Source: a virus
IMG/VR virus record: IMGVR_UViG_3300009156_000005
Location: 1 to 62,690 of that record
Length of the DNA: 62,690 nt
Strand: one strand, 5' to 3'
Shown piece after piece: positions 1-56,973 of this stretch. The notes under the pieces were generated by a model, which was given only the letters and a program-made list of their open reading frames with translations, did no database searches and was not told where the DNA came from. Position numbers and translations under genes: made by a program. Numbering within the stretch: the stretch's first letter is position 1; every line of letters begins with the position of its first letter.

Positions 1-120
1 AGATGATCAAGTCAATCTGGACGCAACGCGCTTTATCCCTTTTACCAATGAAGATGGCGTCTATGACTATATGGCAATCACAGCTACGCCAAAATCCGAT
101 GAGGATCGCGCCGCTATGCG
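1..120. repeat. Terminal direct repeat, left copy (identical to 62571-62690)
   Basis: The first 120 nt (agatgatcaagtcaatctgg...gccgctatgcg) are repeated letter for letter as the last 120 nt. An ORF reads through the junction. Confidence 0.95.
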
Positions 121-223
121 CCCACTGTTTGAAGCCACAGATTGTGTTTGGCAAATGGCAGTTGAGCATGAAGCCGCCACGCTTGATCTTGCCATGCCAA
201 GCGCAGAGCCGGTGCTGTCATGA
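2..223 (+). CDS. 3' part of the wrap-around ORF that starts at 62278 (hypothetical early protein)
   Basis: The frame of the 62278 ORF maps through the repeat onto frame 2 here. It stays open to TGA at 221-223. Confidence 0.6.
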   Translation, partial: DDQVNLDATRFIPFTNEDGVYDYMAITATPKSDEDRAAMRPLFEATDCVWQMAVEHEAATLDLAMPSAEPVLS

Positions 224-474
224 ACACACGACAGGGCATTGTGCGCTTTCCCAACCAGACAGCCGCCATTGCACAGGGCTACTCTTTTCCTGATAAGGGC
301 ATAGACACAGATGTCTCGCCCTACCCGAATGAGGCAAGCGGTATCAAGTGGCAAAATCAGGCCGGTCAAATCACAGTGCCGGTTTGGTTGGATGAATACC
401 AAGATCTAGATCCAGCGCACAAGGGCAAACGCGCCATCGTCGGCATGGTCGTTCAGATGTATCCGCCTAAATAG
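220..474 (+). CDS. Hypothetical protein (84 aa)
   Basis: ATGA start/stop overlap with the upstream wrap-around ORF. The amino-acid composition looks protein-like. Confidence 0.55.
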   Translation: MNTRQGIVRFPNQTAAIAQGYSFPDKGIDTDVSPYPNEASGIKWQNQAGQITVPVWLDEYQDLDPAHKGKRAIVGMVVQMYPPK

Positions 475-502
475 TTATCACATCAAGTAGGGGGGTGGCT
501 CC

Positions 503-554
503 AAAAAAAAGGTGCCGCCCCTTTTTTGACTTTTTCAAAATCGCCTGTACGCGC
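503..554. repeat. About 50-bp conserved element, copy A (A-run, GGTGCCGCCCC, T-runs, AAAATCGCCT); copy B is at 58049-58098
   Basis: aaaaaaggtgccgccccttttttgactttttcaaaatcgcctgtacgcgc aligns with 58049-58098 apart from a few indels and mismatches. Confidence 0.8.
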
Positions 555-578
555 TTTCGCCCACGAGCGCACGAGAAA

Positions 579-716
579 ATTCCCAAATTTCTCCAGCAAA
601 TTATCCCAAAATTTGTTGGCAAATTGCCCGAAAAATATCCCAAAATACTCCAGAAAAATATCCCAAAATTGTCCTGAAAATCTCCAGAAAATCCTGAGTA
701 ATTTATCCCAAAAAAT
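579..716 (+). repeat. Cluster of five TATCCCAAAAT-type direct repeats, interleaved with CTCCAG(A/C)AAA
   Basis: Copies lie at 579 (degenerate), 602, 636, 659 and 704. Spacings are 23, 34, 23 and 45 bp, which are near multiples of a helical turn. Confidence 0.8.
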
Positions 717-957
717 GTAGCAAAAATGCTGCTTGATTTCTTGGAATTATTGTGATAAATTTATGACGAATTCCCAGCAATCATGAGCAGATTTCACCTG
801 GGATTTCTAGCTAAATTACACAGGAAATTGTCCCCATGTTGAGACAGGTCAGCCGGAAAATTCTTGCGGATCAAGTCACGTTCGCAAAAATTTGCCCACA
901 CAAGAGCAAGCCCACACAGGAAAACTCAAATATAACCCTGGCAACCTACCTTATAGA

Positions 958-980
958 GGGGGGGGGAGGGGGGTATCGGG
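958..980 (+). other. G-tract G9-A-G6 followed by a nearby GGG
   Basis: gggggggggaggggggtatcggg lies inside a 985-bp non-coding stretch. Confidence 0.9.
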
Positions 981-1206
981 TGTCCACCTACGCATGTTCG
1001 TGTACTTGTCACACTAACCCCAGAGTCGCCCGCCCTTGTTATGTCAAGTCCAAGCGATTGTGAAATAACTCACAATCAAAATGCAACCTGCGCTAAAATT
1101 ATCGTCACAAAATGTTGCAAAATCTGATACACCCGATTACTTCCGAAAAAAATGTTAGCACTTCAAAAAGTGAAGCTTTTCCTAGTGAAGCACTTTTTGA
1201 TCGTGC

Positions 1207-1242
1207 CGGTGCCGGAAGCACCGCGTTAGACTTCCGGCACCG
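1207..1242 (+). promoter_or_regulatory. 12-bp-stem hairpin CGGTGCCGGAAG / CTTCCGGCACCG
   Basis: Perfect inverted repeat with a 12-nt loop and no U-tract. It lies in the leader region of the island. Confidence 0.6.
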
Positions 1243-1362
1243 GTGCCAAGAGCCAAGCGCCAACCGGCACCAGATCACCGGCAAGCATGGCACGCTCTTT
1301 CTCGTGCCGGTGCCGGTGCCGGAAGCACTGCGCATACATATAGAATGTTATCAAGAATTTAC

Positions 1363-1403
1363 TGTATCAAGATTTGACACATATAAGGATAAAATGTTAT
1401 GAT
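1363..1403 (+). promoter_or_regulatory. Operator-like inverted repeat TGTATCA-N5-TGACACA overlapping a candidate promoter (TTGACA-N18-TATGAT) for the 1460 operon
   Basis: -35 ttgaca at 1374-1379 and -10 tatgat at 1398-1403. The inverted repeat is at 1363-1381. A partial duplicate tgttatcaagaattt lies just upstream. Confidence 0.5.
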
Positions 1404-1459
1404 TTGATTGAAGTACCTTGAAGCGAGAAATACACGAGTGAAAGAAAGAAGAAACACAA

Positions 1460-2593
1460 ATGAGCAATCGACAAGAAGCACTGCAAGCGCAAGCCAAGAG
1501 CATGACAAAAGCAAAAGTGATCAAGCTTTTGGCGGTGCTTGGCGTGCAAGAGATCGTGAAAGTGGGAAGATTTGAAATTGAAGCAACTGTCAACGGAAAG
1601 CGCGGTCAATTTGATCCGCGTGATCTGTGGGTTGAGCTTATGCTTGAGTTTAAGCCACTGTATCAAGAAGCACCGGAAGTCTATACGGAAGCATACTTGA
1701 GTGATGAGGCGATCTTATGGGAGATCGCCAATTATGATATGGCGCGAGAATGGTGCGGTGCCGAAAGTGATAACCGGCAAAGTGATAGGTTGGCACAACT
1801 TTTCGCGCTCTTCCGCCATACTGCCAACCTAAACTTGGAAGTGCAATACTCAGAGATATGTGAATGTATTCTTGACGATCTCTTCCCACTGCCAAGAAAG
1901 AGCGCCAAGCTTCCGGCACCGGTGCAAGAAGAGCAACCGGCACCGGCACCAATCAAGCAATTTTCAATTGATGATCTCGTGCCAACCGGTGATCACTCTT
2001 GGCTCTTGCCAAATGCTATACAGTGCTTGGAGATCAAGCGCACCGGCACCAATGAATACACCGCCATGCTTCCGGCAAGTGATCACGCGGTCACTTGGCC
2101 CATGCCAAGCTTGAAGAGCTTGCTTGTCGTGATGAGTGCTTACATCTCCCAACCGGAAGCGCAACCGGCACCGCTTGACCCAACCGGCATATACGATCAA
2201 GTGGCCTACGATTGGCAAGAGCGCACCTATCAAGTTATCGAGCAAGCACTTGAGCAAGAGCGCACCGCCAAGCTTGCCGATCTCTTGGGTGATCTCGATT
2301 GGCAACCGGCACCGCTTGAGCAAGCCACTTTCGATTGGTTGGCAGTGCCGGAAGCGCCGATCTCATTGTCGTATGCTTCCGCCACGCGTGCCGGTGCTTA
2401 TAACGTGCCGGAAGCTTTCCGCTTGCTTCCCTATCAAGCACCGGAAAGCTTGCTTGAGCGCGTGGCGCGTGCCGGTGATGCTTTTGACCAATGGAGTGAG
2501 GATAACTTTGCGCTCTTCACTCATCCACTTGTGTGCTTTATGTCGTATGCCGGTGTGATCTTTTTGCTCATGTATACGATTTTCAACCGTTAA
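1460..2593 (+). CDS. Hypothetical protein (377 aa) with QPAP repeats and a hydrophobic C-terminal tail
   Basis: Long ORF preceded by a purine-rich leader (gaaagaaagaagaaacacaa). It is the first gene of the island operon. Confidence 0.7.
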   Translation: MSNRQEALQAQAKSMTKAKVIKLLAVLGVQEIVKVGRFEIEATVNGKRGQFDPRDLWVELMLEFKPLYQEAPEVYTEAYLSDEAILWEIANYDMAREWCGAESDNRQSDRLAQLFALFRHTANLNLEVQYSEICECILDDLFPLPRKSAKLPAPVQEEQPAPAPIKQFSIDDLVPTGDHSWLLPNAIQCLEIKRTGTNEYTAMLPASDHAVTWPMPSLKSLLVVMSAYISQPEAQPAPLDPTGIYDQVAYDWQERTYQVIEQALEQERTAKLADLLGDLDWQPAPLEQATFDWLAVPEAPISLSYASATRAGAYNVPEAFRLLPYQAPESLLERVARAGDAFDQWSEDNFALFTHPLVCFMSYAGVIFLLMYTIFNR

Positions 2594-2622
2594 TTTTCTC
2601 ATCACAGAAAGAAGCTTCTTGT

Positions 2623-4338
2623 ATGCCTACCTATCTAGATTCTATTGCACGAAAATACAACTCCGAAAGCAATCATGCTTTCGTGCTATACGGTGCCACG
2701 CGTGATCTCCAATTAGGTCAAAACGGATCACTCTTGATCGAGCAACATTTGATGCAAACACAAGCGGAAGCGCGGATCGTTGTCACGTTTTGCGTAGGTG
2801 CCGGTTGGAAGTTTGCCGGTGATGCTGAAAGAGCCACTTTCAAGCAAATCACCGGCATTGATCAAGCTTCCGGTGATTTTGCCGGTTTGACAAGCAATAG
2901 TGACAGTGATGATCTCCCGATTGACGTGCCAAGCGCCATTGGCTTGATTGATACTGCCATGCGCCAATCAGAGAAAAAAGTTATGCTTGTGCTTGACCGC
3001 GCAGAACTTATCGCACCGGCACAATCCTATGATCGCATGGCACCGTCTGACAAAGCGGTGCTTGCTCTTCTTGGCAAGCTCGCGGTGGATCGTGCCGTGG
3101 AAAGCACCGGCAATATGATCATTATGATCACAGATAACTTGATTGATTTACACGAAAGCTTGCGCTTGGCAAGCTCGCGTTACTTTGCTATCGAGATCAC
3201 ACCGCCAAGCGCGGAAGAGCGCTTGAGCATAGCACAATCTGTTTTTCCCCAACTAGAGGATCGCGGCGTAGTGCTTGAGCTTTCGCCGGAAGCTTTTGCA
3301 AGCGCCACAAGTATGCTAACTCGATATGGATTGATGGACATCGTATTGGACGCACAAGCACAATTGCGCTTGAGCAAGGATCAAGTGAAAGCGGTAAAAG
3401 CTCAAGTGTTATCACAAGAGTATGGTGATGTGCTTGAGCCACTTGAGCCACTGCCAACCGGTTTTGATGCCATCGCGGGATTGGAGCCACTGAAAGAGCT
3501 TTTTGATGAGATCGTCACCAATATGATTGGTGGTGATCTTGGAGATGTGCCAACCGGCATACTTTTTGCCGGTGCCGCGGGATTGGGGAAGTCTTACTTT
3601 ATGCGCGGCGTCGCCGGTGCTTGTGGCTTGCCGGTGATTAATTTTAACGTAGGGCGCTTGCTTGGCTCTTTCGTAGGCCAATCTGAGCGCAACCTAGAGC
3701 GCGCCCTAACTGCCATACGATCCGCGGCACCGTGTATTGTCGTGATTGATGAGATCGAGACAACTTTTCCAGATCGAGCCAATGCCGCGCCAAGTGGCGA
3801 TTCTGGTGTTAGCTCAAGAATACTCAAGCGTATGCTTGAAGAGCTATCCGACCCAAGCAACCGCGGAAAAATTCTGTGGGTTGGCATCACCAATTTTCCC
3901 AATAAGCTTGACGCCGCGCTTTCTCGTGCCGGAAGATTTGACTTGACGGTTGCCATGCTTCCGCCAACCGAACGCGAGCGCTTGGCGCTTTTGATGCTTT
4001 ATGCCAAGAAGTACGCGGTCAACCTGCCATATAACGATCAAATCTTGGAAAGCACCGCCAAGCTCTTGGTTGGCTATACCAATGCCGAAATCGAGAATGT
4101 AGTGAGGAAAGTTAGAGCGCTCTTCAAGACGTATGGCACCGATCAAGCTTGGCAAGAAGCACCCAAGCGCGTACGCGCCAATACACGAGATGTGCAACTC
4201 ATGACTAACTTGGCTCTTTCCGCAGTGAATGACTCAGATATGCTTCCGGTTGAATACATAGACCAATGGCGCAAGATCACCAATCAAGCACCGGAAGCAA
4301 CCGGCACCGGCACCCAAGAGCGCAAGCGCGTTTTTTGA
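2623..4338 (+). CDS. AAA+ ATPase (classical Cdc48/FtsH-type module in the C-terminal half)
   Basis: Walker A GAAGLGKS, Walker B IVVIDEIE, and SRAGRFD arginine-finger region. The ATG at 2623 follows atcacagaaagaagc. Confidence 0.85.
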   Translation: MPTYLDSIARKYNSESNHAFVLYGATRDLQLGQNGSLLIEQHLMQTQAEARIVVTFCVGAGWKFAGDAERATFKQITGIDQASGDFAGLTSNSDSDDLPIDVPSAIGLIDTAMRQSEKKVMLVLDRAELIAPAQSYDRMAPSDKAVLALLGKLAVDRAVESTGNMIIMITDNLIDLHESLRLASSRYFAIEITPPSAEERLSIAQSVFPQLEDRGVVLELSPEAFASATSMLTRYGLMDIVLDAQAQLRLSKDQVKAVKAQVLSQEYGDVLEPLEPLPTGFDAIAGLEPLKELFDEIVTNMIGGDLGDVPTGILFAGAAGLGKSYFMRGVAGACGLPVINFNVGRLLGSFVGQSERNLERALTAIRSAAPCIVVIDEIETTFPDRANAAPSGDSGVSSRILKRMLEELSDPSNRGKILWVGITNFPNKLDAALSRAGRFDLTVAMLPPTERERLALLMLYAKKYAVNLPYNDQILESTAKLLVGYTNAEIENVVRKVRALFKTYGTDQAWQEAPKRVRANTRDVQLMTNLALSAVNDSDMLPVEYIDQWRKITNQAPEATGTGTQERKRVF

Positions 4339-4342
4339 TACA

Positions 4343-4356
4343 CTTATCACGATAAG
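4343..4356. promoter_or_regulatory. Palindrome CTTATC-AC-GATAAG, copy 1
   Basis: The block acacttatcacgataagaa is shared with 6466-6484 and lies immediately upstream of the leader/RBS of the 4371 gene. Confidence 0.7.
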
Positions 4357-4370
4357 AAAGAGGATCACCA

Positions 4371-5603
4371 ATGGATACTTACAATGTCAGTCAAGCACTT
4401 GACACAAACCAGAAAGAGCTTGAGCGCTTGCAAGGCGCTTTTGATGGCATCACCACAGATATAAGCTTGAGCAATAAAGATTGGCGCGAATTGATGGAAA
4501 GCGGTGCGCTCGCGAGCTTGAGCATATCACGATACCGCGGCCACAAGAGTCTATCAAGCGCCGATCTTGGCATCTCCCAAGAAGAGTATAAAGAAGTGGA
4601 AAGCATCGTCTCACTTGGCTTTCGCTTGCTCTTGCCTAAAGCGGTGCTTGGCGCTTTCAATTCTCTGGAAAGCAACGCGCGCCAAGTTTTGCGCCGTTAT
4701 ACGCTGAAAGTGCCAACCGGTTATTTTCTTCCGGCAAGCGCCTATCAAGCTTGTGCCGGTGCCATGCAAGATCACAAGAGCAAATTTGATGCACTTGTGG
4801 CGCAACTGTTAGACGATCTCGATATGCATGAGCGCACTGTCCTAGAGCAATATACGGTGCTTGCCGATCAAGTTTCCACGCGGCTATACAATGCCGGTGT
4901 GATCACGTATGGCGAAAGATGGGAGAAAGCACAAGAATTCAAGGATCGGTGCATGGCTACTTTTCCCACTGCGGAAGAGCTTGCCGATCAATTCTCTTTC
5001 CGCTTGAGCTTGGCTTTCGTGCCGGTGCCGTATCAAGCCAATCAAGAAGCACCGCAGTACGCTCAAGCAAGCGCCGATCTCTTGGCACTGCGCAAAGCGG
5101 TGCTTGAAGAGCAATCACGCGTGCAAGCTCAAGAAGTGACAGGTTTTATCAAAAGCATACAATCGGAAGTCTATGCACTGGTGAATGAAAGCTTGAGCGC
5201 AGTGCTTTCCACGGCACAAGATAAGAGCCATTTACAATCGCGCTCGATTGTCCAATTGCGCGGTCTAATCGAGCGCTTGGGTCAAATGAATTTTTGGGGT
5301 GATGCCAAGCTCGATCTAATCAAGCAAGAGATCACTGCCATACTTGACCGCGAGCCAAGCAAGCGCAATTTTGAGATCGATCAAGCTCTTTTGTCTGCTA
5401 TGCAATCGGAAGTGCAATTGACCCTAAGAAGCATTGGCACCGTGGAACGCGGTGCGCTCGATATGTCGCAACCGGCACCGGCACCAATCAGTATGGCAAC
5501 CGGCACGCGCCAAGAGCCAATCAAAATCGCACCGGCACCGGCACGCTTGCCACTTCCGGCAAGCGCTCTAGCCAACCGCGCCAATAATGGCAAATTATTC
5601 TAA
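4371..5603 (+). CDS. Hypothetical protein (410 aa), possibly DUF3150-like
   Basis: The N-terminal pattern SLSISRYRGHKSLSSADLGI...SLGFRLLLPK...FNSLESNARQVL resembles DUF3150 proteins, which sit beside AAA ATPases in ICEs and phages. This is from memory only. Confidence 0.7.
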   Translation: MDTYNVSQALDTNQKELERLQGAFDGITTDISLSNKDWRELMESGALASLSISRYRGHKSLSSADLGISQEEYKEVESIVSLGFRLLLPKAVLGAFNSLESNARQVLRRYTLKVPTGYFLPASAYQACAGAMQDHKSKFDALVAQLLDDLDMHERTVLEQYTVLADQVSTRLYNAGVITYGERWEKAQEFKDRCMATFPTAEELADQFSFRLSLAFVPVPYQANQEAPQYAQASADLLALRKAVLEEQSRVQAQEVTGFIKSIQSEVYALVNESLSAVLSTAQDKSHLQSRSIVQLRGLIERLGQMNFWGDAKLDLIKQEITAILDREPSKRNFEIDQALLSAMQSEVQLTLRSIGTVERGALDMSQPAPAPISMATGTRQEPIKIAPAPARLPLPASALANRANNGKLF

Positions 5604-5633
5604 TCACCCAATCACAGAAAGAGGATCACAATC

Positions 5634-6107
5634 ATGGCTTGCAATAGTGTAGCAGTTAGCAAGGCGCAAATTGCGCAGATCGCATTGGCGAAAGAAGAGC
5701 TTGTGACGATGCTTTCCAAGCTTCTTGGCATCACTCCGCAAGAAGTACACTTCTTCCAAAAGAATGTAGGGGAAAGAGCGTATACGCATGGCGGAAGTGA
5801 GATCACCATGAAGTACGATTATGCACACGCCGCGTACAGTGGGCGCAAGTATGCCGGTGTAGACTCGATTGCCATCGTACAGCGCGTGGTAAGTGGCAAG
5901 ATCACGCTTGAGCTTTCCGTAAGCACTGACAATTACCATGTCAAGCGCGGTCAAGAAGTGCAAGAAGAGCTTGCACAAGCTTTCGAGCGCCAATCTACAG
6001 TGGCGCAACAAACCACTGTATTGAAGAAGCTCGCGGCTCTTGGCAAGCTTTCTAGCATCACCCAAAAAGATAATGGCGTCACGGCACGTATCGAGATCAC
6101 CCTATAG
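5634..6107 (+). CDS. Hypothetical protein (157 aa), possibly DUF1257-like
   Basis: ORF with the conserved leader caatcacagaaagagg. The C-terminal pattern KKLAALGKLSSITQKDNGVTARIEITL is reminiscent of DUF1257. Confidence 0.6.
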   Translation: MACNSVAVSKAQIAQIALAKEELVTMLSKLLGITPQEVHFFQKNVGERAYTHGGSEITMKYDYAHAAYSGRKYAGVDSIAIVQRVVSGKITLELSVSTDNYHVKRGQEVQEELAQAFERQSTVAQQTTVLKKLAALGKLSSITQKDNGVTARIEITL

Positions 6108-6156
6108 GCCACTGCCAACCGGCACCGGCACCAATCACAGAAAGAAGCTTACAATC

Positions 6157-6396
6157 ATGGCACGCAAGATAACTTTTGACATAGCAATCACCAATGATGG
6201 TCAAATAGGGCTTTTTGCTCGCGGTGATGCAACCGCGGAAGAGGGGAAAAAAGCACTTGAAGCAATTTGGAAAGCGCTTGGCACCCAAGAGATCGAGCTT
6301 TCCGGCATAACGGAAGTAGAGCGCCATACGGACGATCCAAGAGTGCAAGCGGTACACGATTTGACCCACGAACATAATCACAATCACGATCATTAA
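6157..6396 (+). CDS. Small protein (79 aa), possibly DUF2997-like, with a His-rich tail
   Basis: KITFDIAITNDGQIGLFARGD...ALGTQEIEL...TEVE follows the pattern of DUF2997. The leader is caatcacagaaagaagc. Confidence 0.55.
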   Translation: MARKITFDIAITNDGQIGLFARGDATAEEGKKALEAIWKALGTQEIELSGITEVERHTDDPRVQAVHDLTHEHNHNHDH

Positions 6397-6404
6397 AAAG
6401 CACC

Positions 6405-6445
6405 GGCACCGGAAGAGCCAAGCAAGCTCAAGCTCTTCCGGTGCC
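6405..6445 (+). promoter_or_regulatory. 14-bp-stem hairpin GGCACCGGAAGAGC / GCTCTTCCGGTGCC
   Basis: Perfect inverted repeat with a 13-nt loop, located 9 nt after the stop at 6396. There is no T-tract. Confidence 0.6.
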
Positions 6446-6467
6446 ACTGCCAACCAATCAACCTACA

Positions 6468-6481
6468 CTTATCACGATAAG
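6468..6481. promoter_or_regulatory. Palindrome CTTATC-AC-GATAAG, copy 2
   Basis: Same 14-bp palindrome, upstream of the 6503 gene. Confidence 0.7.
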
Positions 6482-6502
6482 AAGAAAGAAGCATCACCAA
6501 TC

Positions 6503-6799
6503 ATGGCAATTGACCAATGGGGCAACATAGAAATCAAGCTTGAGCGCCAATTATGGCAACCGGCGATCTACGCAATCATGGCGGAAGTGTTTGCGGTCGA
6601 TCAATACGATCTTGAGCTTGAGGCGGAAGTGGAAGATACCTATATTCTCTATACTGCGCAACCGGAAGAAGATATACTTTTTGCAGTGTCAACCAATGCC
6701 GATCTCACTTCCGATCTCACTATAGAATTTTGTGGTGATGATCCAAGCTCTTTCGATAGCAAGGCGCTTGAAAGCAAGCTTGCTCGCGCAGTGGCCTAA
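6503..6799 (+). CDS. Acidic hypothetical protein (98 aa)
   Basis: ORF whose leader is shared with the other island genes. Confidence 0.6.
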   Translation: MAIDQWGNIEIKLERQLWQPAIYAIMAEVFAVDQYDLELEAEVEDTYILYTAQPEEDILFAVSTNADLTSDLTIEFCGDDPSSFDSKALESKLARAVA

Positions 6800-6853
6800 T
6801 CACCGGCACCAATCACCCTAACATTGATCTCTTCACAGAAAGAAGCTTTCCCA

Positions 6854-7021
6854 ATGCAAATTATGACTAACTCAGAGAAATTGACCCAAGTGGCTTTCGA
6901 TGGCGCAATCTATCTTGCCGGTGCGCTTGGCTATTGGTTTCCGTGGGCCTGTAAACTCCAATACGTGATTTGGCACGCCGCGCATATCTGCGGTGTATAC
7001 GTCACCGGTGGAGTAGGCTAA
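6854..7021 (+). CDS. Small hydrophobic protein (55 aa)
   Basis: The ATG at 6854 follows cacagaaagaagctttccca. It is the last ORF before a strong terminator. Confidence 0.45.
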   Translation: MQIMTNSEKLTQVAFDGAIYLAGALGYWFPWACKLQYVIWHAAHICGVYVTGGVG

Positions 7022-7069
7022 ACTGCCAACCGGCACAAGCCACTATCAAGCACAATAGAATAAGCACCC

Positions 7070-7107
7070 AAGAGCTTGCAAGCGCCCACTTGCAAGCTCT
7101 TCTTTTT
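7070..7107 (+). terminator. Intrinsic terminator at the end of the island operon
   Basis: 13-bp stem AAGAGCTTGCAAG / CTTGCAAGCTCTT with a 6-nt loop, followed by cTTTTT. Confidence 0.8.
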
Positions 7108-7290
7108 GGCTCTTCCGGCACTGCCAAGCATCACCCCAAAAAGCGCCGATCTCATCACCCCAACTATACCGCCAATCACCAATGCTTTCTACGGTGCCGT
7201 ATAAGCTCGATTTCTAGGTCACTACGCCACTTTCTACCATGCTTATGATGATTTTGACCTAGAGCTTTTTTTGCTATGCTTCTTGCGCTT

Positions 7291-7319
7291 CTTTTTGGAG
7301 TATCATTTACTGCTACACT
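7291..7319 (+). promoter_or_regulatory. Operator/promoter-like motif AGTATCA-N5-TGCTACA with a TACACT -10 box
   Basis: agtatcatttactgctacact at 7299-7319 matches the motif at 59515, 62200, 22394 and 53577. The -35 position is weak. Confidence 0.4.
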
Positions 7320-7931
7320 TCCGCCAACCGGCATACACCGCCAACCGGCACCAATTCGCAGTGGCCTATACACCGCCATGCTCAAGCGCTTGGCTCATGC
7401 TCAAGCTCATTGTATCGAGCGCCGTTATAGTGGCTCTTGGAAGCTTGGGTCAATCCTCTTGCTTCCAAGCTCAAGCTTGCTTCCGGCACCACAGATCACC
7501 ACAAGCTTGATACACTGCCAACCGGCACGCACAATTTACAACCGGCACCAATGCAAGACTTCCGGCACGCACAACCGGCATGAGCCACAAACACAAGCTT
7601 GGGAGCGCGGTTGCTTGTGATCTTATCGTGCCAAGAGCATACCAATGCAACGCGGCATAGTGTTAGCGTGCAAAGTGCAAGCACCGCCATAATCTTTGCA
7701 TGGCACATTGGTTTACAGAATGTTGCATTGTGTAAAGCAATAAATGTTGCGATGCGCTTCACATAACAAGCTCAAAGGCGTGCCGGAGGGCTATGCCCTT
7801 ATTATGTCAAGCCCATGCCCCTTATGTAGCTCTCTAAGTCCGGATAGTGAAAAATTTCCCCTAATAGTTTGTTATTGTCAAGTTAGGTCTAAAAAATCTC
7901 GTTATTGGGTAGATAAGTGCAACAAATGGTG

Positions 7932-8963
7932 CTAAATGTCGGGTTGGGCATTTAGGGGGCGGAAGTTGTTGCGATTGGGCGGCGGAGGGGGTTCGGGGAC
8001 GGTGATAGGTTCGACGTGGATATAGGGTTGGTCGGCGGGGTTACGGAGGGGCAAGAAGTTGCGCGCTTGGTTACCGGAGAAGGCCGTTTTTTTGATACGG
8101 ACGGTAGCGGTATAGCTTTCTTTGCTGATCATGAGGCGGTGGAGTTGTTGATTGGAGACATAGGCGTTCCATGCGTGGATGACGAGGCGGGCAAGGAGAT
8201 TGGATTCCACAGGCCGGTTGAGATTTTTATGGATGCGAATGGTACGCGGCAGGAGGTCATGGAGGGCTTTGCGGGGGTCGCCGCGCGGGATGGCGTCATC
8301 TTGGGCGACTTGACGCCAGAAGTCGCGGGCGAGGTCGGGGGCATAGTGAAAGGTAATCAGGGCAACGGAGAAAACGGCAGATTTGTAAAGGAGTCTGCGC
8401 CAGTGTTTATCAATGGGGGAGATAGCGGCGTCGAGGCGATGATATTCGGGTGCCCAGAGGGGGACTTGTTCAAGGAGGACACCGACAGGGAGAAGGTTAT
8501 AGGGTGTTTGGCAACCGAAACAGTCATAGATAAAGCGAAGGGCGGCGGCGATTTCATCGACAGTGCGTTTAGGGACGTGCATTTGTTCAGAGATGTGATA
8601 GGCAACGGCGGTATCGGCAAAGGAGCGTTTTTTTTGAATATCGGTGGTAGCGTAGAGGATTTTGAGGTCATCTTCTGAGCAATTGAAGGTACGGACGATA
8701 GGGAGGGCGACAGGTTTATCGGCAAGGATGATAGCATTGAGGGTATGTTGGCCGTTGATGAGGATGGGTTGATTGTCGGAAGTGTGGGCGATTTGGATGG
8801 CGAAATTGGGCATGAGGCGATCATAGCGGATCTCGGTAGCAAGGAACTGGACGTGATTGGGGCGCAGTGGGCGATTTCTGGTATTAGCGACAAGGAGTTG
8901 TTCAGCCATGCCTGGGGTGATGAGTTCAAAGGTAGCGGTAGGGTTGAGGTACATAGGACGCAA
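7932..8963 (-). CDS. ParB/sulfiredoxin-like N-terminal domain protein (343 aa)
   Basis: NRPLRPNHVQFLATEI...ILINGQHTLNAI follows the pattern of ParB-like nuclease domains. The coding strand is strongly G-poor. Confidence 0.6.
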   Translation of the reverse strand: MRPMYLNPTATFELITPGMAEQLLVANTRNRPLRPNHVQFLATEIRYDRLMPNFAIQIAHTSDNQPILINGQHTLNAIILADKPVALPIVRTFNCSEDDLKILYATTDIQKKRSFADTAVAYHISEQMHVPKRTVDEIAAALRFIYDCFGCQTPYNLLPVGVLLEQVPLWAPEYHRLDAAISPIDKHWRRLLYKSAVFSVALITFHYAPDLARDFWRQVAQDDAIPRGDPRKALHDLLPRTIRIHKNLNRPVESNLLARLVIHAWNAYVSNQQLHRLMISKESYTATVRIKKTAFSGNQARNFLPLRNPADQPYIHVEPITVPEPPPPPNRNNFRPLNAQPDI

Positions 8964-9150
8964 ACGCTTTCTGCGCCAGTTTTAGCGCGACAAGTTTGGG
9001 GGGTAGATTGACAGGGAACAGAAAAGGGTTTACGTTGAGGAAGTAGGCAGTACCCATTTTCTCAAAGCTCAGGGGTAGCACCCCCTGGGCTTTGTTGTTC
9101 TTGGGGAGATGATCGCGCCAAAGATAAAAAAAATCAAGGGGTTTGCAGAC

Positions 9151-9474
9151 TTATGTCAATTCGCTGCTGTCTGGAGGGGGACGGCGGTGTTCGATGGGGT
9201 AGTTATAGCCATGCGGGTGGAGGGTATTGAAGTAGGAGATCCAGTAATCGAGGCGTGGGCCGAAGTGGATAGAGTCGGGGAGGGTTTCGATGAGGGTAAA
9301 GAGGGTATTTTGGATGCCGTAGCGGAGGATGTCGGATAGGAGGGTATCGTTTTGATGGAGACCGAAGCGGCGGGCATCGGTAGCGGCGCGGTGGCGGATA
9401 CGGGAGAGTTTGGCGGTGGAAGCGCCGATGAAGGATTTGCCGGTGGCTTTGCAGTAGGCTTTATAGATGATCAT
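9151..9474 (-). CDS. GIY-YIG domain nuclease (107 aa, catalytic domain only)
   Basis: IIYKAYCKATGKSFIG (GIY..YIG spacing), RIRHR, LIETL, and HPHGYN. Confidence 0.6.
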   Translation of the reverse strand: MIIYKAYCKATGKSFIGASTAKLSRIRHRAATDARRFGLHQNDTLLSDILRYGIQNTLFTLIETLPDSIHFGPRLDYWISYFNTLHPHGYNYPIEHRRPPPDSSELT

Positions 9475-9492
9475 AGGTTTATTAAAGCAAGT

Positions 9493-9735
9493 TTAGGGGT
9501 AGCGGGTTTTGGGCGGCACGTCTAGGAGCGTTGGTTGGGCTGGGATGGCAGGTTCGCAGTGTGGTTTGAGGGCATCTTTGAGTTCGGCCAGGATCGATTT
9601 AAGGCGGTCGATTTCAGCGAGTTTGGCGGCGAGTTTGGGGGGGTTATCACGAAAGACGTATTGGCGTGCGGAGCGTTCTTTGTTGGCGATTTTGACGGCT
9701 TCGGTATAGAGGGTTTGGAGATGGTCAATATTCAT
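9493..9735 (-). CDS. Hypothetical coiled-coil protein (80 aa)
   Basis: The ATG at 9735 (MNIDHLQTLY) is preferred because the longer form would run into the 9769-9809 hairpin. Confidence 0.5.
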   Translation of the reverse strand: MNIDHLQTLYTEAVKIANKERSARQYVFRDNPPKLAAKLAEIDRLKSILAELKDALKPHCEPAIPAQPTLLDVPPKTRYP

Positions 9736-9768
9736 AAGGGTAAATATAGCATGATAAGGTGGGGCGAT

Positions 9769-9809
9769 CAAGAGCGATGGGGTACGAGGCCATCGCTCTT
9801 GGTCTTTTT
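9769..9809 (+). terminator. Strong plus-oriented intrinsic terminator inside a minus-strand gene block
   Basis: 12-bp stem CAAGAGCGATGG / CCATCGCTCTTG with a 9-nt loop, followed by gtcTTTTTg. There is no A-run on the other side. Confidence 0.7.
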
Positions 9810-9817
9810 GTGTAAGG

Positions 9818-11195
9818 GGCGGTTGCTGAGATGTGCAGTGACTCGCTAAGCAGAACAGTGACTCGCTGTGCCGTTGCGGGGCGCGGCTTTACTTTTCCTT
9901 TGCCAAGCGGAGGCTCGCTATGCCGTTGCACCGAGATGCGGAGAGCCGCGCTGCTATGCCATCGCGTAGGAACGGCTCGCAGTGGTACGCCGTTGCGTGG
10001 GTACGAGGTACGTAGCTCCGCCGTTGCGTCGTCATGCGTCGAACTGATGTGCCTTAGCCAAGCTAGGCGTAGGTGCGGATTGGTCTGCCGTGGCGGTGTA
10101 GTGCAAGGATTGGCCTTGCCGTTACCGAGACAAGAGCAATGGTACGGATTGCTTTGCCGATGCTTTGGAGGGCCACGTTATGCCGTGGCATTGACTGGCT
10201 CTGGATAGGTGCGCCATTGCTGCGGGCTGCGTTGTAGGGTTTTGCGTAGCCGTTGCTGGGCGGTGTACTGTTGAGGTAAGCTCTGCCTTCGCCACGCGCG
10301 GGGTTGCTCAACTGCGCCGTTGCTGTGTACAGGACTGGTGCGCAATGCCGTCGCATTGGTAGGCTAAGGGTTACGTCGCCGCTGCGCCGAGCCGTTGAGT
10401 GCCTTGACTTGCCTTTGCGTGGATTAGTATTGGAGCGACTTGCTTTGCCTTTGCTGCGCTACGCTAACTATGACTCGCAAGGCCGTTGGTTCCCAGCGGT
10501 GTGCGTAGCGGTTGCTGGGCGACGATTCGGCTTGCCTTGCCTTTGCTGAGAAGTGCTGCGTCCTGGTGTGCAGTGCCGTTGCCAAGATCAGCTTAGCTTT
10601 TCCATGCCGTTGCCACGATCAGCGTAGACTCGCTTAGCCATTGCTACGAACAGCGTAGGGTTGCTTAGCCGTTGCCCTGATAAGTTGTTAAGGTGCGCGG
10701 TTGCTTTGCGTGTGCGTAGAGTAGAATCAAAGTGTGCTACGCTGACAGCACGTAGATCTACCTTGACGATGCCCTGCTCAACTTCGCTTTTACGGTGTCT
10801 TGCTTTGCACGGCCATGCCGTCGCGGGGCACAGGCGAACTAAGCTCTGCCCTTGCGTTGATACGATATGTACTGCCATGCCTCTGGCTCGCGCTGGTAGG
10901 CCATGCCTTCGCTCGGAAGTGCCAGGCTTCCCTATGCCTTTGCATAGATATGGCTGGCTTAGCTTTCCAGTGCCCTTGCGTAGCGTCGGGCTACCATGCC
11001 GCTGCTGAGATATGGCTGGCTTGCCCTGCCGTTGCCTTGCGTCGTCCCGCCTTGCCGTTGCGATGGCAAGCATAGAGGTGATGAGCTAAGCCGTTGCCAC
11101 GGTCGGCTATGGGCTGATTGCCTTGCCACTGCTTCGATTAGCCATGAGACGCCTTTGCTTGGCGATGGTTTGGACAGCTAAGCCTTTGCCATGTT
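9818..11195. repeat. Array of about 43 degenerate same-orientation repeats (modal period 31 bp, core GCCGTTGC, second box GCGTAG)
   Basis: Core start positions include 9989, 10020, 10051, 10087, 10118, 10156, 10182, 10213, 10249, 10285, 10316, 10347, 10378, 10411, 10447, 10482, 10508, 10539, 10575, 10606, 10637, 10668 and 10697. The spacing is mostly 31 bp and otherwise 26-38 bp. Confidence 0.85.
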
Positions 11196-11768
11196 GAAGG
11201 AGAAGCGCCCCCATGATCCGCTGCGCCATTGCCCCATTCCCCTGTACTTGCCATAATCAAAGAGTTCAAAAAGAAGCTCTTGGCTCATGGTTTTGTCATC
11301 GAGGACAAGAAGCTCAAAGTTGAGGGTTGAGCCGGTTGGGATTGTCTCGCTAAAGGCAAGGGCGACACGTTCGCCTTGTGCGGTTTGGGCACGGAGCGGG
11401 CGTTGCAGTTCACCGACGGTGCCGTGCAGGGTAAAGGGGATCAGGCGTGGTTCGACAAAGACCAAGCCGTCGATCACCTTCTTGAAGGCACGCACCTTTT
11501 TGGAGAGGCTATCTTCCATACGGGAGAGCATAGAGCAAGCGTCTTTGAGATAGCCTTTTACCACATAGTCATAAAGCACAGGTGTGCCATCGGGGAGCCG
11601 GTGGAAGCCGGTTTTGCCCTTGTCGTCAATGGTGATGGTTTCCACTTCTTCGATGGCATTGGCCGGAGCGCCGTCTTTACTGGCGATGAAGTCGGTGTAG
11701 ATCTGCTTATTGAGCGGCACTGTCCCTAGAATATCGGTTAGAAAGGTCAGTGTTACATCGTAGCGCAT
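11178..11768 (-). CDS. Hypothetical protein with RAMP (Cas7/Csm3-like) motif order
   Basis: GGAGGA sits 3 nt before the ATG at 11768. Motifs in order: MRYDVTLTFLTDILGTVP; GFHRLPDGTPVLYDYVVKGYLKD; GERVALAFSETIPTGSTLNFELLVLDD; and a C-terminal glycine loop GKYRGMGQWRSGSWGRF. Confidence 0.65.
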   Translation of the reverse strand: MRYDVTLTFLTDILGTVPLNKQIYTDFIASKDGAPANAIEEVETITIDDKGKTGFHRLPDGTPVLYDYVVKGYLKDACSMLSRMEDSLSKKVRAFKKVIDGLVFVEPRLIPFTLHGTVGELQRPLRAQTAQGERVALAFSETIPTGSTLNFELLVLDDKTMSQELLFELFDYGKYRGMGQWRSGSWGRFSFNMAKA

Positions 11769-11838
11769 CAGTCCTCCAGAAATTATCATGGTAAGTTTGA
11801 GAGTAAGTGGGGGTGTTACTGGCTTGGGTATTTGATGA

Positions 11839-12027
11839 TTATTTCATGCTGGTTATCTCCTTCCGCGCCTCAGTTGTGCGGTGGTCGGGGCAATAGTGCT
11901 TCTTGGAGCCGATTTGCCAGTTGTCCATGCGGGCGAACATGATGAGGCGGCTGCGGTTGTGGGTGAAACTGACATAGCGTTTTTCGCAACCTGGCTGGTC
12001 GCACTTGATGGTAAGGTAGATGCTCAC
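11839..12027 (-). CDS. Small zinc-ribbon-like protein (62 aa)
   Basis: CDQPGC...YCPDH cysteine/histidine pairs. The gene is tightly packed in the operon. Confidence 0.5.
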   Translation of the reverse strand: MSIYLTIKCDQPGCEKRYVSFTHNRSRLIMFARMDNWQIGSKKHYCPDHRTTEARKEITSMK

Positions 12028-12437
12028 AGTTCCTCATCGGATGTGTCATAGATGGCGAACGAGCCATCGGGTTCGAGACGGCGGCGGCGCACGCGGGTCT
12101 GATGGTCAACAAAATCAATGGCGCGTGTCCAGTTCTTTGGCTCAGCGGGATAGTAGTCGGGGCCAGGCGGGTCGATGTAGCCTAGCAGGGATGAGAGTGC
12201 TATGACAAGCGCATTGGTAGAGCCGCCGTTGGCTTCATCATCATACGTCCATTGGCGACCGCGGGTGAGCGGGGTGTCATACTCAAAGATGCCCCAATTG
12301 TAGAGTTGGCGTTCGATGGTAAGCACATGGCCGATGTGCGGCGATGGGCACTGGACGTACATGCCGTCAAAGTCGGGCACTTCAAAAGGGGCGGCTGGTA
12401 GCGACTTGGGTAGGTCACCGGTGTCAATTTTCCTCAC
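12024..12437 (-). CDS. Hypothetical protein (137 aa)
   Basis: 4-nt overlaps with both neighbouring genes. Confidence 0.6.
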   Translation of the reverse strand: MRKIDTGDLPKSLPAAPFEVPDFDGMYVQCPSPHIGHVLTIERQLYNWGIFEYDTPLTRGRQWTYDDEANGGSTNALVIALSSLLGYIDPPGPDYYPAEPKNWTRAIDFVDHQTRVRRRRLEPDGSFAIYDTSDEEL

Positions 12438-12742
12438 TGAATACCCTCACGTTCGACCAGGCTCAGCAGCACGGCAATCGGAGCCGAGTTGTCTTTGCTT
12501 TCCAGTTCTCCCAGCAAGCGCAAGGCTTCAATGGCAAGATGCACCGTTGCCAAGTGCATCTTGGTCATGGGAACGAGCGGGATCAGCCGGTAGCCTTTGG
12601 GTAGGTTGGATGTGACCTGCACGCCGTTGACGCTGGCGATGATGTCAACGCCATTGCCGTTAATCGGGTCGGAGTGCTTGAGCGTGCAGGGGACGGCGAA
12701 GTCATCACCAGGCAAGGCCAGGAGATAGGTGCCTTCTTTCAT
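12434..12742 (-). CDS. Hypothetical protein (102 aa)
   Basis: 4-nt overlaps with both neighbouring genes. Confidence 0.6.
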   Translation of the reverse strand: MKEGTYLLALPGDDFAVPCTLKHSDPINGNGVDIIASVNGVQVTSNLPKGYRLIPLVPMTKMHLATVHLAIEALRLLGELESKDNSAPIAVLLSLVEREGIQ

Positions 12743-13161
12743 GGTTTTTCCTCAAGTTGTTTTTGGTTCTCCTTGTAGACATCGTACATGGTCTCTTTGG
12801 AGTCGGTTCGCACGATCATGTAGGGCATAAAGACTTCATCGGCGCTGACCATGTTAGTCTGGATGATGGCGATCTGCGCCGCCGTCCAGTCTTTCAAAAT
12901 GCGCCAGGCAATGCGCAGGGCTTGTTTGTGGGTACGCAGACCTTTGGGCACGCTTGGATTTGTTACGATAAGTTTATAGACTTGCTCGGTACGACAGGGG
13001 AGCAGGTAGGTGTTGTGTTCAAGCTCAAAGATCAGGGCAACCGGCTCACCATGCTCAAAGTTGACCAGGACACGGTTGGCACCGGCGCGGCCAAGCATGA
13101 TGTGGATCTCGGTGACAGACCTGCTGGCTTCGATGCTTGTCGAGTAGTTCAGTACCGGCAT
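12739..13161 (-). CDS. Hypothetical phage protein (140 aa)
   Basis: The ORF overlaps its neighbours. The composition looks protein-like. Confidence 0.6.
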   Translation of the reverse strand: MPVLNYSTSIEASRSVTEIHIMLGRAGANRVLVNFEHGEPVALIFELEHNTYLLPCRTEQVYKLIVTNPSVPKGLRTHKQALRIAWRILKDWTAAQIAIIQTNMVSADEVFMPYMIVRTDSKETMYDVYKENQKQLEEKP

Positions 13162-13541
13162 CAGTCCCTCTTTAACTTTGGCAAGTGAAACTCATGGCAG
13201 AAGGCGCAATATTTCTCACGGATGTCGCCCAGGTTGGCCGAAGCCATGCCACAACAGAGACAGACAATGCTGGCTTCGCCTGGCGTTAGCTCATAAGTGG
13301 CAAGGCCGTTGAGCTTGAGGACGGTACGGCGCTCGCGGGCATCGAGCAAGCGCCGTTGGTCTCTGGCGTCTTTCTTCATGCAGGGTTTGTCCCGCGCGGG
13401 CGGGTCATCGACTTCCTCATCCAGTCCATCCTCTTTATCAAATTCAAAATCAAAGCTGTCATCATCCATATACCATAGGCGCACTTGCATAAATGTAATA
13501 TATCCTGTATACTCGTACAAGTCGTGCAATTTGTACGGCAA
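13161..13541 (-). CDS. Hypothetical protein with a C-terminal CxxC...CxxC motif (126 aa)
   Basis: CLCCG...CAFCHEFH. It is the first gene of the minus-strand operon. The exact start is uncertain. Confidence 0.5.
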   Translation of the reverse strand: MPYKLHDLYEYTGYITFMQVRLWYMDDDSFDFEFDKEDGLDEEVDDPPARDKPCMKKDARDQRRLLDARERRTVLKLNGLATYELTPGEASIVCLCCGMASANLGDIREKYCAFCHEFHLPKLKRD

Positions 13542-13562
13542 GAAGTCTTACTCAGGAGAACA

Positions 13563-13892
13563 ATGATGCCTTTACGAAGTCACAAGCTCGGTTCAGATGA
13601 AGTACGCCGCCAATGGCGTGATGTGTTGGATGAGGTGCAAGCCGGTGAGAGTGTGATCGTCTCGCGTGCTGGTAAGCGGGTTGCGGTCATCATTCCCTTT
13701 GAGTTATGGGATCTGGCAAAAGACCAACTCGAAAACTTGGATGACACGCTTGACCTGCGCAAAAAGATTGACGCATACCGCCGTGCTGTGGCGGCGGGTC
13801 TTGAGGAACGTGATCCAACTTGGGATCGACTGGCTGACGAAGAAGTCGCGGCTGGGTACTTGGCTCCCTTAGAAGAAAAGGAAGCCGCGTGA
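13563..13892 (+). CDS. Phd/YefM-family antitoxin
   Basis: SDEVRRQWRDVLDEVQAGESVIVSRAGKRVAVIIPFELW matches the family pattern. The gene overlaps the toxin gene by 4 nt. Confidence 0.7.
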   Translation: MMPLRSHKLGSDEVRRQWRDVLDEVQAGESVIVSRAGKRVAVIIPFELWDLAKDQLENLDDTLDLRKKIDAYRRAVAAGLEERDPTWDRLADEEVAAGYLAPLEEKEAA

Positions 13893-14155
13893 GCCAACCC
13901 TACCGTGTGACCTATGCGCCCGCCGCCGCCAAATTTATCGAGAAAAAAGCGCCCAATCACATGCGGGGACGGTTGAAAGCGGCTTGTGAGTCGCTTGGGC
14001 GAGAACCACGCCCCTATGGTTGCGAAAAGATGTCTGGTTATGACAACCGCTGGCGTATTCGCGAAGGCGACTATCGGATCGTCTATGAAATTTACGATAA
14101 AGAGTTGCACGTCCACATCATTGACACAGACCATCGCAAGGACATATACCGCTAA
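13889..14155 (+). CDS. RelE/ParE-family toxin
   Basis: WRIREGDYRIVYEIYDKELHVHIIDTDHRKDIY is the canonical RelE/ParE C-terminal pattern. Confidence 0.85.
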   Translation: MSQPYRVTYAPAAAKFIEKKAPNHMRGRLKAACESLGREPRPYGCEKMSGYDNRWRIREGDYRIVYEIYDKELHVHIIDTDHRKDIYR

Positions 14156-14799: not shown

Positions 14800-14825
14800 G
14801 TGATCTCCTATAAATCCTATAAAAC

Positions 14826-56293: not shown

Positions 56294-56461
56294 CTCTTCA
56301 CTCTTTCTCTTTTCCCACTTGCATATCCAACCCGACCATGCTAGAGTGGAAATCACATGGTTGGGTGTACGTATGGCTGGGGGTATTCGTTTTTGCGGGT
56401 ACTCGTACTGCGTTACTACAACCGCTTTTCTGTGAAGAGAAAAGAGAACTGCAAGCAATTG

Positions 56462-56496
56462 GGGACGGTTGACCAGACCGTCCCTTTTGCTTTCTT
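56462..56496 (+). terminator. Plus-oriented terminator-like hairpin between minus-strand genes
   Basis: Stem GGGACGGT / ACCGTCCC with a 7-nt loop, followed by TTTTgcTTTcTT. Confidence 0.5.
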
Positions 56497-56499
56497 ACG

Positions 56500-56871: not shown

Positions 56872-56898
56872 AAGGGCTGTTCATGCCTTAAATGTAAC

Positions 56899-56927: not shown

Positions 56928-56973
56928 TTGACATAAGTTTATTCAGGCATGAACAGTGGGCAAAACTGTGGTG

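Follow-up and report, generated by a model that had tools for sequence, protein, structure and literature searches.

A sharply bounded cassette with its own forbidden vocabulary of short DNA words in the genome of an uncultivated tailed phage

The window analysed here is the whole of IMG/VR virus record IMGVR_UViG_3300009156_000005, a stretch of 62,690 nt that represents a tailed-phage genome of ~62.5 kb in a circular assembly, with a 120-nt overlap between its ends. Positions 1157 to 7706 form an island, also called the cassette below, in which coding and non-coding DNA alike are written in a restricted set of short words; the remainder (7707-62690 plus 1-1156) is referred to as the backbone. 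A first-pass annotation, made from the sequence alone, had noticed the island as a pile-up of AAGCTT at 1170-7640. The island is defined less by this excess than by the near-absence of many four- and five-letter words. Two regimes of selection against short words of double-stranded DNA appear to act on the genome, and the chances are about even that the cassette is an early or leading segment, exposed to defences that the backbone escapes. A cassette with its own lineage-specific forbidden vocabulary, as a phenomenon conserved across a new phage family, is the more interesting result.

The exact count of AAGCTT in the window is 27; every copy falls within 1173-7600, and the rest of the sequence, ~56 kb, contains none. 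Nine of the copies, all of them inside the island, form the 8-mer palindrome CAAGCTTG. The earlier counts of about 27 and at least nine are borne out by this tally, and the probability that all 27 sites fall within 10.4% of the window is 3e-27. For the backbone, Markov models of orders 0 to 4 predict 11.4, 16.7, 28.4, 20.7 and 23.4 copies, respectively, where none is observed (Poisson P(0 | 16.7) = 6e-8), and a comparable density outside the island is thus refuted. A second hexamer, AGCGCT, follows the same pattern, with 8 sites inside (3218-7390) and none outside, where 20.8 are expected; it too is allowed in the island but eliminated from the backbone. Near-miss hexamers are common outside the island, as the annotation had stated, and exceed expectation there (GAGCTT 40 vs 16, AAGCTC 34 vs 15). 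The 19 coding copies of AAGCTT lie in all three reading frames (8 as K-L, AAG CTT; 5 as x-S-L, A AGC TTG; 6 as Q/E-A-x, AA GCT T), and the 8 others lie in non-coding DNA, again as first described. The density is highest in the non-coding DNA (8 in 1288 nt). The spacing of the sites is irregular (30-614 nt), and a flank consensus is absent beyond C/G at +/-1.

The lack of AAGCTT in the backbone is one instance of a much broader purge. Forty-three hexamer classes, AAGCTT and AGCGCT among them, stand at zero in the backbone, each of them with an expectation of at least 12 (summed expectation 1102), whereas 0.0004 such classes would be expected by chance. Several five-letter sites are also wholly purged, and degenerate sites follow suit (observed/expected: CCSGG 0/121, GGWCC 1/90, GWGCWC 0/69, GRGCYC 0/65, CYCGRG 0/52). 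The earlier description of the backbone as a case of classic restriction-site avoidance is upheld by these figures. The island keeps 41 of the 43 purges (1 copy observed vs 94.6 expected), AAGCTT and AGCGCT being the sole exceptions, and the same core pressure therefore acts on the island as on the backbone. The genome-wide purge, which in the island too covers about 41 hexamer classes and the degenerate sites, is best read as the usual response of a phage to type II restriction by its hosts, if unusually broad. One-step neighbours of AAGCTT and AGCGCT number 328 and 422 in the backbone, respectively; without selection, a divergence of 2% would leave both hexamers at zero with P = 0.007. The purge of both sites must thus be ongoing or have ended only very recently. 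No methyltransferase or restriction gene was detectable in a scan of the concatenated window proteome, and a phage-encoded enzyme of either kind was dropped as the cause of the AAGCTT contrast. 'Serglycin' matches in the concatenated proteome are artefacts of the GS linkers.

The borders of the island were drawn as the maximum-scoring segment of an island-versus-backbone order-3 Markov log-likelihood ratio. The log-likelihood changes sign within 200 bp at both ends, and the island edges outside the training core (1157-2000 and 7000-7706) score as high as the core itself. The extent of 1170-7640 proposed in the first-pass annotation holds for the AAGCTT sites, but the likelihood-based borders are 1157 and 7706. 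Per 4.5 kb, 10-11 four-letter and 85-90 five-letter word classes are depleted in the island, versus 0.2 and 18.6 in the backbone. About 14 four-letter classes that the backbone uses hundreds of times are nearly missing from the island: CAGC/GCTG is found 3 times vs ~97 expected (backbone 544) and GAAC/GTTC 4 times vs 43 expected, with CCCG, AAGG, CCTC, GGAC, CGAC and others depleted as well. GCWGC (38 expected) and CCWGG (8.8 expected) are at zero, the latter with 190 copies in the backbone, above its own expectation there. None of the 70 island GATC sites lies in the context RGATCY, of which the backbone has 60. The annotation had taken the island for the opposite of avoidance; it is instead the more avoidant part of the genome, with 88 vs 19 depleted five-letter classes per 4.5 kb. 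The depletion of non-palindromic words is equal on both strands (island: CAGC 1 and GCTG 2, GTTC 0 and GAAC 4; backbone: 270/266 and 149/154), which suggests that double-stranded DNA, and not RNA, is what is recognised. Selection at the RNA level was rejected on account of this strand symmetry, and depletion of protospacer-adjacent motifs (PAMs), judged by trinucleotide ratios only, was dropped as well, since these fit no single PAM.

The accumulation of AAGCTT is mostly a by-product of this restricted vocabulary, and the palindrome itself is not favoured. Many words are forbidden, and the legal words are therefore inflated (AAGC/GCTT, CCGG, GATC, CCGGCACC), and with them AAGCTT and AGCGCT. 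Codon usage in the island is shifted: glutamine is encoded by CAA in 95% of cases, and leucine by CTT in 38% versus 15% in the backbone. Codon nulls were computed on the 5262 coding nt of the island. With backbone codons 2.4 coding AAGCTT are expected, and with the island's own codons permuted 5.0 +/- 2.0, versus 19 observed, which agrees with the earlier statement that the enrichment lies at the DNA level and is not a by-product of codon choice. In a constrained null, synonymous codons were permuted by Markov chain Monte Carlo from random starts, with the total of 94 independently defined depleted words held at its observed value. This null yields 11.3 +/- 2.4 coding AAGCTT (0 of 150 samples reach 19) and fully reproduces the counts of CCGG, GCGC and the recurrent CCGGCACC. 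TT follows AAGC (27/121) about as often as it follows GAGC (15/62), and an order-3 Markov model expects 24.5 copies of AAGCTT, versus 27 observed. These figures speak against the functional iterated palindrome that the annotation had offered as one explanation, and AAGCTT shows neither the excess over its sub-words nor the conserved context or spacing of a binding or decoy array. A near-identical 23-nt motif, (G/C)CAACCGGCACCGGCACC(A/C)A, was also seen at 1933-1955, 4297-4319, 5468-5490 and 6115-6137, in different frames (P-A-P-A-P, T-G-T-G-T) and between genes, mostly on the plus strand. Its recurrence may be an effect of the vocabulary too, given that the constrained null reproduces the CCGGCACC count.

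The junctions of the island with the backbone are identical in three assembly pipelines, namely the JGI window, an ENA MEGAHIT contig and a Logan k=31 contig. The Logan contig (L002, 9.7 kb) corresponds to window 482-10215 at 100% identity and is unbranched over both borders. An assembler artefact is excluded by this agreement; biological replication is not thereby proved, one common sample being possible. The ENA MEGAHIT contig of 62,550 nt completes the circle. Over 21.7 kb of that contig (L001, equal to window 55179-62690 plus 1-14338), the ENA assembly differs from the window in only two places, a 15-nt indel at 58817-58831 in a GERIK-type peptide repeat and a homopolymer indel at 58050.

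The cassette is found in related phages as well. Its AAA gene, described below, is the best-conserved gene of the phage family, with homologs of 84-42% identity, and six lineages have a common gene order: a non-coding gap of ~1 kb, the AAA gene, a DUF3150 gene, small open reading frames (ORFs) and a non-coding gap of 1-1.8 kb. The AAA identities (62/58/57/42%) track those of DnaB (44/-/46/32%), and the flanking primase-like gene gives the same ranking. From the shared synteny and the co-divergence with flanking genes it follows that the cassette is ancestral and not a foreign insert. Of the import from a different host background that had been suggested at first, foreign origin is thus lost, and the idea survives only as a recent exchange of homologous cassettes. 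The relatives were found to carry a cassette that is syntenic and likewise over-purged. Depleted five-letter classes per 4.5 kb number 110 in the cassette vs 25 in the flanks of L010, 38 vs 20 in L003, 27 vs 17 in L004, 27 vs 17 in L006, and 103 in L007, a cassette-only contig. All four lineages with backbone sequence have CCWGG depleted in the cassette by comparison with the backbone, where the site stands at or above expectation. The contrast is clear for the window, L010 and L004 but modest for L003 (7/9.7), and L007 and L009, which are cassette-only contigs, lack the site altogether. In three of the backbones CCWGG is over-represented (window 190 vs 122, L003+L029 170 vs 102, L004 62 vs 34), an excess that exceeds mere tolerance.

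The forbidden words differ between lineages. The island of L010 (9127-15013) is equally sharp and has 16 depleted four-letter classes vs 1 in its flanks, with a different vocabulary: CTCCCC/GGGGAG reaches 39 copies, versus a single one in the 15 kb of flanks, GAGACC has 36 versus 2 and GATC 69, and AAGC/GCTT is depleted, opposite to the window. L007, the relative with 84% AAA identity, scores as island-like throughout and contains 21 AAGCTT and 16 AGCGCT. Its nucleotide identity to the window is 68-78%, 368 of 958 conserved codons (38%) differ synonymously, and the AAGCTT sites turn over (7 shared of 11 and 15). The vocabulary is kept despite 22-32% divergence and synonymous turnover, and it is therefore actively maintained, not merely inherited. 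A search for the backbone of the L007 lineage, made with the giant virion protein and with the gene to the right of the cassette, did not reach it, the best non-self matches being 41% and 40%, respectively. L003+L029, a 62% relative of 44 kb, has most of the window's backbone purge list in common with it, AAGCTT not being purged there; the shared list implies a similar landscape of host restriction-modification (RM) systems. The L003 cassette avoids extra sites, such as RGCGCY with 1/9.6, versus 59/51 in the backbone. In the same relative an N6/N4 methyltransferase gene stands right after the cassette (L003 15508-16527) and a Dam-family methylase gene near RecT (L029 21298-21837). A K-L AAGCTT within the AAA motif NFPxKLDAALSRAGRF is kept in four lineages (window 3904, L003 11288, L004 10075, L007 2816), even where AAGCTT is otherwise rare.

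The island contains one plus-strand operon, in the order promoter, 377-aa gene, AAA gene, DUF3150 gene, four small ORFs and terminator. The predicted sigma-70-type promoter (TTGACA-18-TATGAT with TG, 1374-1403) lies 5' of the first gene; it is one of four 11/12 consensus matches in the window and is kept in L007 at 288, and its function as a promoter is suggested by that match. The first gene (1460-2593) encodes a protein of 377 aa without a match in Pfam, PHROGs, PADLOC or PDB sequences. It is the most variable gene of the cassette, with 34% protein identity in L007 and no tblastn match (E <= 1e-5) in L003, L004 and L010. The 571-aa product of the second gene (2623-4338) is a predicted Cdc48/p97-type tandem AAA+ unfoldase with two stacked AAA domains, D1 and D2. 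PF00004 matches residues 313-443, in D2 only; the AlphaFold model has a predicted local distance difference test (pLDDT) score of 82.3, and Foldseek aligns the full-length protein with p97, Cdc48, Rix7 and Drg1 at E ~1e-20. PADLOC returned only generic AAA similarity to IetA and TRIP13. The DUF3150 gene (4371-5603; PF11348, E = 2e-11) adjoins the AAA gene in all relatives, and three of the four small ORFs (5634-6107, 6157-6396, 6503-6799, 6854-7021; all plus strand) have homologs in relatives. A repeated leader, CACAGAAAGAAGCTT, precedes the gene starts at 2623, 6157 and 6854; the leader at 5634 reads ...CACAGAAAGAGGATC and has no AAGCTT. A strong intrinsic-terminator-like hairpin with a 13-bp stem and a T run (7070-7101, plus strand) stands 3' of the last ORF and is followed by a non-coding tail in island vocabulary (7102-7706), with four AAGCTT at 7441-7600. 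The vocabulary sets in 217 nt ahead of the promoter and runs on for 605 nt past the terminator; it extends 303 nt 5' of the first gene and 685 nt 3' of the last.

The cassette is bracketed by a 20-nt direct repeat on the plus strand, CCCTTGTTATGTCAAGTCCA at 1033-1052 (105 nt outside the left border) and CCCTTATTATGTCAAGCCCA at 7796-7815 (90 nt outside the right border). The two copies agree at 18 of 20 positions, and the pattern CCCTTRTTATGTCAAGYCCA has exactly these two perfect plus-strand matches in the window, versus 0.03 expected. It replaced AATGTTGC, which was rejected as a flanking repeat because its count was not significant (8 vs 3.9). In L010 and L003, as in the window, bracket repeats flank the island at a distance of ~35-110 nt from either border: L010 has a variant pair at 9056 and 15047 around 9127-15013, and L003 has TTATGTCAAG at 9396, 9440, 9545 and 14613 around its island at 9504-14520. 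A 61-nt border element (7678-7738, plus strand) sits astride the right border and is 88.5% identical in L007, where the non-coding DNA around it is not alignable with the window. Repeat-bearing untranslated stretches of ~1 kb flank the cassette in all lineages. In the window, the upstream stretch contains non-coding tandem repeats of a 57-nt degenerate unit (TATCCCAA four times, 576-727, plus strand) that lie outside the island and are conserved in L010. Poly-G tracts and a conserved CACTAACCCCA follow at 950-1030; the L010 counterparts of the two stretches lie at 8608-8736 and 8960-9040. This untranslated region (576-727, 950-1030), recognisable in L010 at 57% AAA identity, is probably cis-acting.

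In the explanation favoured here, the agents that shape the cassette would see the cassette and not the backbone. A backbone with 544 CAGC/GCTG and 190 CCWGG would not be survivable under an agent that cuts at these words, and the agents in question must therefore see the cassette only; the cassette thus appears to be visible to agents that are blind to the backbone. The cassette would be the part of the genome that is exposed and expressed first, and protection of the remainder would then come from its products or from the infection programme. The cassette is in keeping with such a staging in its length (10.4% of the genome), host-type promoter, repeat-bearing untranslated insulation and predicted protein-remodelling ATPase. 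The cassette-specific depletion in six lineages matches the segment-specific avoidance expected of a T5-like leading segment, as far as sequence evidence goes.

Segment-specific sensitivity is known from cultured phages. In BF23 and T5, RM sensitivity comes only from sites in the first-step-transfer repeat, and sites elsewhere are tolerated (PMC10644984). Targeting of T5 by clustered regularly interspaced short palindromic repeats (CRISPR) is effective only in the first-injected DNA (10.1101/866236). In the T7-like Murciavirus, only RM motifs in the first-injected region give sensitivity, and the leading region is transcribed by host RNA polymerase, variable and rich in anti-defence genes (PMC12455610). 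The first-step-transfer region of T5 and BF23 makes up ~8-10% of the genome and has its own early genes, with long untranslated repeat-rich DNA alongside; similarly, the cassette of the window, at 10.4% of the genome, is the most heavily purged segment and lies between ~1 kb non-coding stretches, a likeness seen in the sequence. Unlike in T5, homologs of A1, A2 and dmp are absent, scans of the cassette showing only the generic AAA and DUF3150 matches, and there is no DnaA-box array. Nor is the backbone generally immune, as it still purges 43 hexamer classes, and the tolerance of two backbone-purged sites in the cassette is not predicted by T5. A host-type promoter, judged by consensus match, and a terminator delimit the operon, a possible parallel to the T7-like Autographiviridae (Murciavirus). 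Unlike these phages, the window encodes a tail-tube protein, an integrase and RecT, and its cassette has lost four- and five-letter words wholesale, versus one type I motif. No phage RNA polymerase was found in Pfam and PHROGs scans of the tested window proteins, from which the 2618-aa protein was excluded.

The absence of dozens of recognition sequences from backbone and cassette resembles the genome-wide palindrome avoidance of other phages. Classic avoidance is described per genome, whereas the window has two regimes with a border sharper than 200 bp, and the stronger regime hits non-palindromic four-letter words and causes pile-ups of legal words. The leading regions of conjugative plasmids are the first DNA to enter and provide early-expressed counter-defence functions, facing the defences alone; they enter as single strands, with single-strand promoters. 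The cassette is like them in concept and unlike them in that no homology was found, the DUF3150 protein being without a PLSDB match. Sharp compositional borders, direct repeats and a lower G+C content (50% vs 55% in the backbone) are shared with repeat-flanked genomic islands; unlike these, the cassette is ancestral, syntenic and co-diverging, has no recombinase inside or beside it and stands 14 kb from the integrase.

The weakest step of the explanation concerns AAGCTT and AGCGCT. The simplest explanation for this exception may be a recent cassette swap: the cassette would have come from an L007-like relative, exchanged between the conserved bracket and border elements. In the host range of that relative neither site would be restricted, and both would hence be legal in the cassette only. 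A recent swap would fit the bracket repeats and border element and also the break of the L007 contigs at the border, and the tolerance of both sites in the cassette is older than the 22-32% divergence from L007. Possibly, instead, the agent acting on AAGCTT and AGCGCT is blind to the cassette.

The more specific form of the explanation, a repeat-bracketed early cassette whose DNA alone meets short-word-specific host defences at the start of a staged infection, is offered tentatively and falls short of an even chance. Several observations weigh against staged exposure. Scanned against Pfam, PHROGs and PADLOC, the cassette proteins include no homolog of the T5 pre-early genes. DnaA boxes (TTWTNCACA) are unclustered, with 6 in the window vs 4.4 expected and none in the flanking untranslated stretches; an array as in the T5 iss region was dropped on this count. 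The rule that cassette avoidance should be a superset of backbone avoidance is violated by AAGCTT (27) and AGCGCT (8), and the purge of both sites must have lasted to within ~1-2% divergence, so that the swap would have to be very recent. The constrained null stays below the observed counts, both for coding AAGCTT (11.3 vs 19) and for AAGC/GCTT (136 +/- 6 vs 179); the residual AAGC/GCTT excess means either a missing constraint or some positive selection. The JGI, ENA and Logan assemblies, finally, may share one sample.

A purely historical account would make the cassette a recombination-prone module that has passed through more hosts than the backbone, or different ones, with no difference of exposure within an infection. 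It is unlikely. In its favour are the sharp borders, the bracket repeats and conserved border element as potential recombination sites, and the break of contigs L007 and L008, from two runs, at the same base near the border position. The differences are also reciprocal, in that the island alone admits AAGCTT and AGCGCT and the backbone alone RGATCY and CCWGG, and some backbone-purged sites occur in the L003 cassette (TCATGA 2, CACNNNGTG 3). However, with CAGC/GCTG and CCWGG so frequent in the backbone, an agent that cuts there kills the phage whatever the cassette holds. The higher avoidance load of the cassette has the same direction in all six lineages, the cassette co-diverges with flanking genes, and its vocabulary is maintained across the divergence from L007.

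Avoidance of a nuclease of the phage itself is an improbable alternative. The cassette would be present while an early phage nuclease degrades host DNA, with the backbone arriving later or shielded. The same cassette-only purge is predicted, and so are lineage-specific vocabularies that travel with the cassette, as in window and L007 versus L010. Several cassette proteins, including the fast-evolving product of the first gene, have no assigned function, and there is a parallel in T5, which is reported to degrade host DNA under pre-early control (10.64898/2026.04.02.716235). But the only nuclease domain detected in the window is that of the HNH_3 gene at 58998-59480, outside the cassette. Window and L007 share the vocabulary with first genes only 34% identical, some 14 unrelated four-letter classes are hard to assign to one enzyme, and the AAGCTT/AGCGCT exception is left unexplained here too.

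Still less probable is a functional iterated palindrome, in which AAGCTT (and AGCGCT) would serve as binding, decoy or methylation sites required by the cassette in many copies and would be kept out of the backbone to prevent ectopic action. The excess of coding copies over the constrained null, reached by none of its samples, points in this direction, as does the peak of density in non-coding DNA. AAGCTT is also denser in the cassettes than in the backbones of L003 (12/3.1 vs 4/9.1) and L004 (4/2.1 vs 2/4.2), and a few sites are kept at orthologous codons in four lineages. Against this, the palindrome is not favoured over its half-words, as set out above, has no common flanking context and turns over between window and L007. 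It is absent from the cassettes of L009, L010 and L006, and L010 accumulates quite different hexamers, as predicted for a by-product. A chimeric assembly, also raised by the annotation, is very improbable. It would have to combine two related, co-occurring phages at border elements that they share; the conserved 61-nt border element and the 20-nt bracket repeats do exist, and the assemblies may come from one sample. Against it, three pipelines give the same junctions, the k=31 Logan contig runs unbroken across both borders, the shared elements are not exact repeats (18 of 20 positions) and the gene order is the same in all relatives.

Elsewhere in the window, the predicted proteins include a terminase (24198-25595), a major head protein (29207-30286), a tail tube protein (31693-32808), the 2618-aa virion protein and a protein with an M23 peptidase domain. 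A DnaB-like helicase, a replication initiator, RecT, an HNH protein, a ParB-like protein and an integrase are also encoded. No close relative of the window was found among cultured phages, plasmids and genomes. Megablast of island and backbone against cultured phages gave no match, and tblastn with the major capsid protein gave only ~25% matches, to actinophages. An AAA-profile scan of a genome collection returned only distant AAA genes without a clue to the host, and an IMG/VR search returned only the contig already known as L004. The DUF3150 protein had no match in phages and plasmids (PLSDB included), and neither it nor the 377-aa protein had one among PDB sequences; the literature on DUF3150 yielded one irrelevant mention. 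An Rfam scan of the window gave no family.

To the right of the cassette, 7900-9800 has a plus-strand GC skew of +0.4 to +0.5, and two public gene callers pick opposite strands there. A 343-aa ORF (7932-8963, minus strand) matches PHROG 5931 and has homologs of 30-40% identity, including some in prophages of Magnetococcales metagenome-assembled genomes; these matches were dropped as a lead, as they led to an unrelated prophage. Positions 9870-11097 hold GCCGTTGC in 12 exact copies and many degenerate ones, each on the plus strand and ~30-70 nt from the next (18 in the whole window vs 4.8 expected), overlapping the ORF at 10588-11073 (minus strand); the array could be iteron- or parS-like, or part of a repeat-protein gene. 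A pair of Phd/YefM antitoxin and ParE toxin genes at ~13566-14155 (plus strand) is listed in the public gene table of the identical ENA contig.

A local excess of a restriction site, as seen here for AAGCTT, may arise indirectly, when other words are avoided more strongly, and calls for caution in that respect. If the genome is indeed exposed in stages, a T5-like two-stage exposure would have evolved independently in this phage family, and staged exposure would be recognisable in the bare sequence by an abrupt, well-delimited rise in word avoidance. Leading or early regions, with their anti-defence genes, could then be found in uncultivated phages. The lineage-specific forbidden vocabulary would be a sequence-only readout of the defences met in the first minutes of infection, and would provide a catalogue of motifs of 4-5 bp, many of them non-palindromic, that are read by some defence in the host. 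More boldly, whatever purges AAGCTT and AGCGCT from the backbone might be truly blind to the cassette, in which case one genome would contain two reciprocal exposure compartments. The pair of Cdc48-like AAA and DUF3150 proteins would be a candidate machine for host takeover or counter-defence.

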